Shown here one piece after another: positions 7,797-8,213 of a stretch of 14,944 nucleotides of DNA (its first letter is position 1; every line of letters begins with the position of its first letter). The position numbers were made by a program, and so were the translations under genes. The stretch lies in IMG/VR virus record IMGVR_UViG_2703718779_000017; one strand, given 5' to 3'. The notes beneath the pieces are model-generated. The model was given only the letters and a program-made list of their open reading frames with translations, did not search any database and had not been told where the DNA came from. The DNA comes from a virus (lineage: Duplodnaviria > Heunggongvirae > Uroviricota > Caudoviricetes).

Positions 7797-7855
7797 TTCT
7801 GGTGACATTTGGCGGTATCAGTTTTACTCCGTGACTGCTCTGCCGCCCTTTTTTA
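7797..7855 (+). ncRNA. dicF: DicF small RNA (cell-division/ftsZ-targeting sRNA of the dicB operon)
   Basis: ttctggtgacatttggcggtatcagttttactccgtgactgctctgccgccctttttt matches my recollection of E. coli K-12 DicF with about 2 mismatches. Ends in a GGCGG...CCGCC hairpin plus U-tract. Lies directly upstream of dicB. Confidence 0.8.
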
Positions 7856-7859
7856 AAAG

Positions 7860-8007
7860 TGAATTTTGTGATGCGGTGAATGCGGCTCAGCGCACGCGGA
7901 ACAGTTAAAACCAAAAACAGTGTTATGGGTGGATTCTCTGTATCCGGCGTTAATTGTTAACTGGTTAACGTCACCTGGAGGCACCAGGCACCGCATCACA
8001 AAATTCA
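7860..8007 (+). repeat. Long-range 19-bp perfect inverted repeat (TGAATTTTGTGATGCGGTG ... CACCGCATCACAAAATTCA) enclosing 110 bp between dicF and dicB; candidate RNase III processing stem
   Basis: Arms at 7860-7878 and 7989-8007 are exact reverse complements. DicF is known to be matured from the polycistronic transcript by RNase III and RNase E. Confidence 0.5.
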
Positions 8008-8024
8008 TTGTTGAGGACGCGATA

Positions 8025-8213
8025 ATGGAAAAGTTATCATGTAATGCCAGCACGTCTGAACTTCGTTTCGAAATTGGCGTTATCACTGGAGACAAAACAT
8101 TTATTGAAGACGCCATTAAGCAGAGAAAACTCGAGCAGGACCTGTTAAATGAAGTATGCATTCCTTCAATGCTGGCTCGTCTGGACCTGCTGCAAAAAGG
8201 ATATAAACAATGA
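8025..8213 (+). CDS. dicB: DicB cell-division inhibitor (MinC-activating small protein)
   Basis: 62 aa, GAGG upstream. Conserved blocks FEIGV, EDAI, SMLARL align with K-12 DicB as I recall it. Immediately downstream of DicF. Confidence 0.85.
   Translation: MEKLSCNASTSELRFEIGVITGDKTFIEDAIKQRKLEQDLLNEVCIPSMLARLDLLQKGYKQ

Follow-up and report, generated by a model that had tools for sequence, protein, structure and literature searches.

The inverted repeat between dicF and dicB in a Qin-like prophage is the extended closing helix of a pseudoknotted RNA related to STnc100

Introduction

DicF, a small RNA (sRNA), and the protein DicB are textbook examples of prophage-encoded inhibitors of cell division, and work on their operon continues. 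Here, we examined the spacer between their genes in a stretch of 14,944 nucleotides (nt) of viral DNA (Caudoviricetes; IMG/VR record IMGVR_UViG_2703718779_000017), which we refer to as the window and which represents the early-left operon of a Qin-like lambdoid prophage. The spacer contains a 19-bp inverted repeat with an interior of 110 nt. The closest described system is dicBF, an operon carried by the Qin prophage in Escherichia coli K-12, which has the same order of DicF with its terminator, a spacer of about 175 nt, and then dicB and ydfD, and in which the spacer is 97% identical in sequence to the spacer in the window. However, the prophage in the window is another Qin-like element, with a dicB gene that is about 80% to 86% identical to the K-12 gene at the DNA level, with an open reading frame (ORF) on the opposite strand upstream of DicF, and without ydfB and ydfC.

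Two routes to the 3' end of DicF have been described in K-12, and two reviews and one research paper, all of which cite Faubladier, Cam and Bouche (1990), agree on them. According to these sources, the 3' end of the 53-nt form is produced by Rho-independent termination, and RNase III is reported to make the 3' end of a 72-nt form from the full-length transcript (secondary citations of Faubladier 1990; Ragunathan et al. 2023). A separate RNase III site upstream of DicF, corresponding to the 5' end of a 190-nt species, has also been published. A list of classical RNase III substrates includes the dicF-dicB spacer, and in the RNA-seq data of Gordon et al. the K-12 position 1649470, labelled "intergenic dicF-dicB" and flagged as a known site, had 0 reads in both wild-type replicates and 26 reads in the rnc deletion. 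Cleavage by RNase III is thus not new here, as it was published in 1990 for the K-12 orthologue. In the literature consulted on K-12 dicBF, we found no description of the spacer as a structured RNA or as a relative of the STnc100 family (RF02076), which overlaps EcOnc27/sRNA103 and is related to PasD.

Processing stalks that are formed by flanking sequences and cut by RNase III are known from the rRNA precursors, the spacers of the T7 early mRNAs, and the lambda N-leader. What is new here is the nature of the interior of the repeat, a pseudoknotted RNA that is conserved, belongs to the STnc100 superfamily, and has the inverted repeat as its closing helix.

The inverted repeat closes a five-helix junction with a pseudoknot

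A first-pass annotation, made by a model from the sequence alone, had described a perfect 19-bp inverted repeat that brackets 110 bp and ends 17 nt before the start codon of dicB. All of these features were present. The arms at positions 7860-7878 (TGAATTTTGTGATGCGGTG) and 7989-8007 (CACCGCATCACAAAATTCA) are exact complements of each other and lie 110 nt apart, and 17 nt separate the end of the right arm at 8007 from the dicB ATG at 8025. The repeat extends to arms of 24 nt (7855-7878 and 7989-8012) with 92% complementarity. No other perfect inverted repeat in the 14.9-kb window is as long, and it is not a chance product: the longest inverted repeat in 100 dinucleotide shuffles of the window had a mean length of 10.8 and a maximum of 15. 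The corresponding RNA helix, here called P1, consists of 19 perfect Watson-Crick pairs, or 21 contiguous pairs if G.U pairs are counted, and thereby provides the essentially uninterrupted double-stranded RNA of about 20 bp or more (about two turns) that is expected of an RNase III site. RNA folding, which the annotation had proposed as a check, closed the stem in both the minimum free energy (MFE) and the centroid structures, with a z-score of -4.1 on the plus strand.

The paired arms close a structured RNA that is about 150 nt long (7855-8012, with a core at 7870-7997) and in which P1 and four further helices, P2 to P5, are arranged around a junction (Table 1). A pseudoknot is formed between CAGUUAA (7902-7908) and UUAACUG (7957-7963) in the loop of P4. 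The gttaac and AACAGT repeats, noted previously as further palindromes in the interior, do exist, but they are not incidental; they are the strands of P4 (7947-7971) and of the pseudoknot (7902-7908/7957-7963). The P2 region belongs to the 5' motif GGUGAAUGCGGCUNAGCGC, which is invariant within the group of sequences that we refer to below as type A, and its helix is swapped to CCCCC/GG-GGG in STnc100. The P5 region lies within another invariant motif, UCACCnGGAGGCACCnGGCACC, which occurs once in the window, with 0 occurrences expected, and in at least 120 IMG/VR contigs.

It was also noted that the invariant P5 sequence GGAGGCACC (7977-7985), found in all family members, contains a perfect GGAGG, similar to a Shine-Dalgarno (SD) sequence, across stem and loop, and that the 3' region of the element contains three CACC repeats, each of which could pair with the 5' GGUG. 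The coding potential of the spacer was also considered. An ORF starting with GTG at 7920-8213, which would extend dicB in frame, was rejected because the core lengths of the homologues vary and showed no 3-nt periodicity.

Covariation supports the interior helices, the pseudoknot, and the closing helix

We collected 69 distinct homologues, which came from IMG/VR, from complete genomes of E. coli, from records of phages, and from a small number of other enterobacteria. A scan of 596 Gb of contigs with a 16-base pattern yielded 120 loci, nearly all of which were chance matches, with about 6 genuine ones. The explicit structure, consisting of the P1 core, P2, the base of P3, P4, P5, and the pseudoknot, was tested on an alignment of 30 type-A sequences, in which 94.9% of the cells were paired, as compared to 28% to 40% when the partners were slid by 1 to 3 columns. 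The structure contained 16 pairs with double changes, as compared to 7.0 +/- 1.6 in shuffles, none of which (0/500) reached the observed value. RNAalifold recovered P1 to P5 independently, with double changes in 13 of the 27 pairs. In the explicit structure, double changes affected 5 of the 9 pairs in the core of P1 and 6 of the 8 pairs in P4. Double changes from A-U to C-G were observed in the base of P3 (RNAalifold, pair counts), and a swap from U-A to G-C in the middle pair of P5. The insert in P3 (7909-7942) differed in length among the homologues.

The pseudoknot covaried across both type-A and STnc100-type sequences, with strands such as CAGCGA/UUGCUG, AAGGUU/AACCUU, AAACUGAC/GUCAGUUU, CCAGUC/GACUGG, AUCAGCA/UGCUGAU, and others in divergent members. 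In an alignment-free test, the pairing score of a sequence's own strands was 7.02 versus 5.44 for strands crossed between sequences, and the own strands were better in 80 of the 95 cases (Wilcoxon p = 3e-13).

Duplex folding of the flanks revealed a long P1 (20 to 30 bp, z -7 to -11) in at least 5 sequence versions that are unrelated to each other: the dicB type; the Rac/kilR type, which has the left arm of the dicB type and a right arm that contains wobble pairs and one bulged A; the L051 type (GCGAAUUUUGUGGUGUGGUG / CACCGCACCAACAAAAUUCGC); the Citrobacter/Lelliottia type (GCAGGYUUUAAGGUGYGGUG / CACYRCACCUUAAAGYCUGC); and the L260 type (AACAGACCUUGCAAUGCAGUG / CACUGCAUUGCAAGGUCUGUU). K-12 differs from the window at two adjacent pairs of the stem, with U-G in place of C7874-G7993 and G-U in place of G7875-C7992, and both changes preserve pairing at the RNA level only. 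The covariation sought by the first-pass annotation, the lack of which in homologous regions would have spoken against the long stem, is thus both present and strong.

G.U pairs were found in 39 of the 41 distinct arm pairs and accounted for 96 of the 986 P1 pairs in total, and the duplex on the plus strand was the more stable one in 34 of the 41 arm pairs. Because of this G.U content and the stability of the plus-strand duplex, we conclude that P1 is selected as an RNA helix on the plus strand. A minus-strand RNA was rejected on the basis of the G.U content and the scores of a covariance model built from type-A sequences alone (152 bits for the plus strand and 20.5 bits for the minus strand of the window). 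The fold z-score by itself did not separate the strands (-3.4 for minus versus -4.1 for plus).

The element belongs to a divergent branch of the STnc100 superfamily

A permissive Rfam scan matched positions 7862-8002 of the window to STnc100 with 37.4 bits (E 1.5e-6; model positions 21-154 of 206). The inverted repeat corresponds to the closing helix of the family in this alignment, the motifs GGUGAAU and UCACCnGGAGGCACCnGGCACC are aligned, and P1, P2, P4, and P5 of the STnc100 consensus all align to the window. The canonical STnc100 copies, here called type B, had scores of 57 to 132 bits and contained their own terminator, and many of them had a sigma-70-like promoter placed to start at P1. 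The copies in the window, K-12, the Rac-type prophages, and the phages P7 and D6 shared the 5' motif GGUGAAUGCGGCUNAGCGC and scored below the Rfam threshold; these are the type-A elements. Because the covariance model based on type-A sequences alone recovered canonical STnc100 copies in full length, with E-values of 1e-8 to 1e-25, we conclude that type A is a divergent branch of the STnc100 superfamily that is currently unannotated by Rfam.

The window element and STnc100 are both prophage-borne and share a multi-helix junction closed by P1, the pentaloop of P2, the pseudoknot in the P4 loop, P5, and the two common motifs, and their covariance models hit each other reciprocally. However, the helix of P2 is GCGGC in the window and CCCCC in STnc100, and the window element has neither a promoter nor a terminator of its own but is embedded in an mRNA directly upstream of an ORF. 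The intrinsic terminator of a stand-alone sRNA is located around model positions 175-200; no terminator follows the element in the window, where the SD sequence and the ATG of dicB are found within 17 nt instead. The difference extends to the length of P1, which is 20 to 30 bp in the long embedded copies and 2 to 16 bp in STnc100. The STnc100-type P1 had a median length of 7.5 bp in 78 arm pairs, none of which reached 18 bp. The length distribution in type A was bimodal, with 7 to 15 bp in 10 of the 40 arm pairs and 20 to 30 bp in the other 30.

Judged by eye, the sigma-70-like promoters at many type-B loci (e.g. L023 at about 700-745, L074, and L034) resemble TTGACA-17 nt-TAAATT and are placed such that the transcript would begin with the first base of P1.

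The element recurs upstream of small prophage genes

The type-A elements were located 32 to 44 nt upstream of the start codon of a small ORF, measured from the end of the motif, with no terminator in between. These ORFs encode DicB, KilR, TerB/TciA (in P7 and D6, where the P1 helix is short), Ash-family and YdaE-family proteins, and several orphans; the KilR ORF matched the NCBIfam model "FtsZ inhibitor protein" with 161.6 bits. The long P1 was found only in operon-embedded copies, most of which precede genes for division inhibitors (DicB, KilR). In the Rac-type prophages, the element is itself preceded by a DicF-like hairpin (e.g. L009 5721-5776) with a score of 39.1 bits, which is below the DicF gathering score of 48, so that automated annotation misses the Rac-type DicF-like RNAs. 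A DicF-like sRNA, followed by an STnc100-like RNA and a division inhibitor, constitutes a conserved module.

Among 5426 complete genomes of E. coli, 4642 contained a match to the 176-nt spacer, frequently in several copies. The spacer identity was 95% to 99% in most of these genomes, as compared to only 80% to 90% in most for a 441-nt query that includes dicB, and the core was 97% to 98% identical versus about 86% for the whole query. Judged from these sequence identities, the non-coding spacer is more conserved than the coding sequence of dicB.

Several unusual arrangements were noted. In E. coli SCPM-O-B-8794 (L134 1420-1590, minus strand), the order is reversed, such that a type-A element with a short P1 is located directly upstream of a DicF-like terminator hairpin. 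Locus L120 (3549-3725) is chimeric: the element is represented by its 3' half alone (P4, P5, right arm), which is fused to an unrelated upstream sequence, and this indicates a recombination breakpoint inside the element. Many phage contigs (L003, L066, L011, L016, and L018) contained clusters of 3 to 6 copies of the STnc100 superfamily, often interleaved with tRNA genes; phage D6 (L003), for example, has three copies, at 1380-1490, 2995-3130, and 4175-4300, in the tRNA/tciA/ban region. Spacers of the E. coli type were also found in Aeromonas phage AP1 (MT713136.1, 249969-250142; 98% identity) and in Actinobacillus phage vB_Apl-pPE4 (PP818812.1; 87% identity), which suggests that these two records are chimeric assemblies or have mislabelled hosts.

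A model for the processing of the element by RNase III

We consider it likely that the inverted repeat is the extended P1 of an STnc100-superfamily RNA that is cut by RNase III within a dicBF-type mRNA. The fold, its covariation, the homology to STnc100, and the fixed position upstream of small ORFs come from the present analysis. The dependence on RNase III and the 72-nt end are carried over from the published work on the K-12 locus, whose spacer is 97% identical to that in the window. The suggestion of the first-pass annotation that a stem of this length is an RNase III substrate is supported by that K-12 literature, namely the 72-nt DicF, the list of substrates, and the rnc-dependent site.

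In this model, the read-through mRNA of a dicBF-type operon, transcribed from the plus strand, would carry the element as a five-helix junction, P1 to P5, locked by the pseudoknot. The lengthening of the operon-embedded P1 to 20 bp or more, approximately two helical turns, would turn the helix into a substrate for RNase III. The 72-nt end corresponds to the 53-nt end plus 19 nt (K-12 ...GAAUUUUGU), which would place the cut after position 7869, halfway along the left arm. Staggered cuts by RNase III leave a 2-nt 3' overhang, and since the left cut would be near 7869|7870, the right cut is expected near 7999|8000. The predicted products are a DicF that is longer by about 21 nt at its 3' end, i.e. 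with an end of the 72-nt type; an excised core of 130 nt (7870-7999), whose remaining P1 would have exactly the 9 bp that are typical of the family; and a dicB-ydfD mRNA whose leader would measure about 25 nt. What is said about the exact cuts in the window, about what becomes of the excised core and what it does, and about a possible influence on the translation or stability of dicB mRNA is to be understood as extrapolation.

The proposed arrangement resembles the known RNase III stalks in that sequences flanking a structured RNA form a long-range helix, that a staggered double cut frees the flanking RNAs, and that the site is intercistronic in a phage early operon. It differs in that the RNA excised would be a putative 130-nt pseudoknotted RNA rather than an rRNA.

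Several observations weigh against this model or limit it. The STnc100 score of the window is below the gathering score of 47. The copies upstream of TerB/TciA in P1-like phages are also embedded, yet they have a P1 of just 8 to 9 bp, and the long stem is therefore unnecessary for whatever the core does. The literature gives no function for any member of the STnc100 family, so that no mechanism can be transferred from it. Furthermore, the 72-nt end was mapped by way of secondary citations, and the positions of the cuts in the window are extrapolated with a margin of +/- 2 nt. Finally, the position with 0 wild-type reads and 26 reads in the rnc deletion in the data of Gordon et al. is located inside the core, which suggests that the excised core is not stable in exponential-phase K-12, although only few reads were counted and these are conditions in which the operon is repressed.

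Alternative explanations

The spacer might also act as a leader riboregulator, in which the base of P1 would occlude the SD sequence of dicB until RNase III removes the structure, or in which cleavage would trigger decay of the dicB mRNA. This is a live possibility and compatible with the model of an RNase III-cut, extended P1, although we hold it to be doubtful. In the read-through RNA, the SD sequence GAGG(A) is predicted to pair with the CCUU/U-tract of DicF at the base of the stem, in both MFE and duplex folds; the helix extension likewise reaches the GG of the SD sequence in the Rac-type and Lelliottia versions; and the element is always followed, 32 to 44 nt downstream, by a start codon, which in many cases belongs to a division inhibitor gene. 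However, this weak pairing (U.G, U-A) has to compete with the terminator hairpin of DicF, the SD sequence of the L051 version is situated beyond the helix, and the copies in P1-like phages lack the extension. Partition-function folding gave a mixed result. The probability of being unpaired increased from 0.09 in the full-length RNA to 0.58 after processing for the SD sequence, but changed only from 0.30 to 0.37 for the window around the ribosome-binding site (RBS) and decreased from 0.34 to 0.24 for the AUG, which enters a local hairpin. The coupling of dicB translation to processing that had been put forward from the position of the stem is therefore not supported as stated.

Three further alternatives were considered. 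If a gene of the STnc100 type had been captured between DicF and dicB and were retained as a scaffold, only its closing helix would now be selected, as an insulator of the sRNA from the mRNA through RNase III, and the core would be functionless. The lack of wild-type coverage inside the core in one dataset is in line with this, as is the lack of the promoter and terminator of the stand-alone copies, yet we find it unlikely, as the core identity exceeds that of the query with dicB, the invariant motifs are kept, and P2 to P5 and the pseudoknot still covary in the embedded subfamily, including the distant Citrobacter, Lelliottia, L134, and L207 sequences. A palindrome acting at the level of DNA, as a site of protein binding or of recombination or as the termini of a miniature mobile element, would fit the perfection of the 19-bp repeat, the many genomic contexts and copy numbers, and the recombination inside the element at L120, which has the 3' half only. 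It is nevertheless hardly credible, since the 96 G.U pairs among the 986 pairs of P1 would be A.C mismatches in DNA or on the other strand, the plus-strand duplex is the more stable one in most arm pairs, the arms of the different versions are complementary despite being wholly different in sequence, and the interior shows RNA-type covariation that includes the pseudoknot. A processive antiterminator RNA similar to HK022 put, which would modify RNA polymerase such that it passes downstream terminators in the early-left operon, was also considered. Like put, the element is a cis-encoded, structured RNA in a lambdoid early operon; it is compact and highly conserved, many STnc100-type copies begin right at a sigma-70-like promoter, and the expression of kilR is known to respond to NusG/Rho. 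However, putRNA is about 70 nt long and has two stems and no pseudoknot, as compared to a five-helix, pseudoknotted fold of about 130 to 150 nt, HK022 was absent among the phage BLAST hits, canonical STnc100 copies carry an intrinsic terminator at their own end, contrary to what would be expected of an antiterminator, and the window element is located downstream of the DicF terminator rather than upstream. The antiterminator was rejected on account of its size, fold, and lack of sequence similarity, and we consider it very improbable.

A further extension of the model of an RNase III-cut, extended P1 is that the spacer encodes a third product of dicBF, namely an excised 130-nt RNA whose remaining 9-bp P1 would give it the architecture of the stand-alone STnc100/EcOnc27 sRNAs and which would have a division-linked function of its own, in trans or as a ligand of a protein or the ribosome, within a conserved three-part module of Qin and Rac prophages. 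We put this forward tentatively, as a possibility that we think less probable than not.

The locus and its neighbouring genes

The gene order in the window is cI/cro-like immunity genes, DUF1391 (ydfA-like), DicF, dicB, DUF1482 (ydfD-like), a RecE-like exonuclease, xis, and int. The first-pass annotation had recognized DicF, with about 2 substitutions relative to K-12, and dicB, and both identifications held. DicF matched RF00039 over the full model (1-52) with 77 bits, compared to a gathering score of 48, and was the sole Rfam family at or above the threshold in the window. Compared with K-12, it has A instead of G at position 7807 and, provided that the 53-nt form begins at position 7796, A instead of T at that position. 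Its 3' end consists of a GGCGG...CCGCC hairpin followed by UUUUUU, and dicB is located 176 nt downstream. The ORF at 8025-8213 matched DicB over residues 1-62 in Pfam (PF05358; 131.8 bits, cut-off 27) and the DicB model NF049927 in NCBIfam (123.7 bits, cut-off 100). The ydfD-like gene was annotated from matches that are 100% identical over 7790-8230.

Table 1. Coordinates in the window of the spacer RNA, its helices, and the flanking genes
Feature	Position	Strand	Details
DicF sRNA	7796-7848 (53-nt form); Rfam match 7797-7848	+	Includes the terminator hairpin; U-tract at 7849-7854
P1, 5' strand (left arm)	7855-7878	+	Perfect core 7860-7878; family-wide P1 formed by the upper 9 bp (7870-7878)
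Junction AAU and hairpin P2	7879-7897	+	Junction 7879-7881; 7882/3-7886 with 7892-7896/7; pentaloop UCAGC
P3	7897-7946	+	Base 7897-7900 with 7943-7946; encloses the 5' strand of the pseudoknot and the variable insert 7909-7942
Hairpin P4	7947-7971	+	7947-7954 with 7964-7971; loop holds the 3' strand of the pseudoknot
Junction CA and hairpin P5	7972-7988	+	7974-7978 with 7984-7988; loop AGGCA
P1, 3' strand (right arm)	7989-8012	+	Perfect core 7989-8007
dicB, RBS and coding sequence	8013-8213	+	SD GAGGA 8013-8017; ATG 8025; 62 amino acids, end 8213
ydfD-like DUF1482 gene	8210-8401	+	Overlaps the dicB stop; next gene of the operon; from the ORF list and hit annotation

A hypothetical ORF of 73 amino acids is located on the minus strand (7248-7469) between the ydfA-like genes and DicF, and an operon transcript that reaches DicF would therefore pass antisense through this ORF. 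It is followed by a non-coding stretch of about 330 nt upstream of DicF (7470-7796), which is approximately 97% identical to K-12 where the two were aligned (from 7640). The published RNase III site upstream of DicF is expected near position 7659 of the window, and the local fold of 7600-7800 was no better than that of shuffled sequences (z = +0.7).

Discussion

The added value of the present analysis is that the repeat between dicF and dicB is recognized as the extended closing helix of an unannotated, pseudoknotted RNA that recurs before small prophage ORFs, most often those of division inhibitors. Its membership in the STnc100 superfamily explains why the conservation of the spacer exceeds that of dicB, and the current Rfam thresholds miss the whole type-A branch of the family. 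A single RNA module links the leaders of dicB, kilR, and tciA, and a very abundant family without a described function thereby gains a genetically tractable instance, for which the nuclease and the operon are known and the phenotype, filamentation, is visible.

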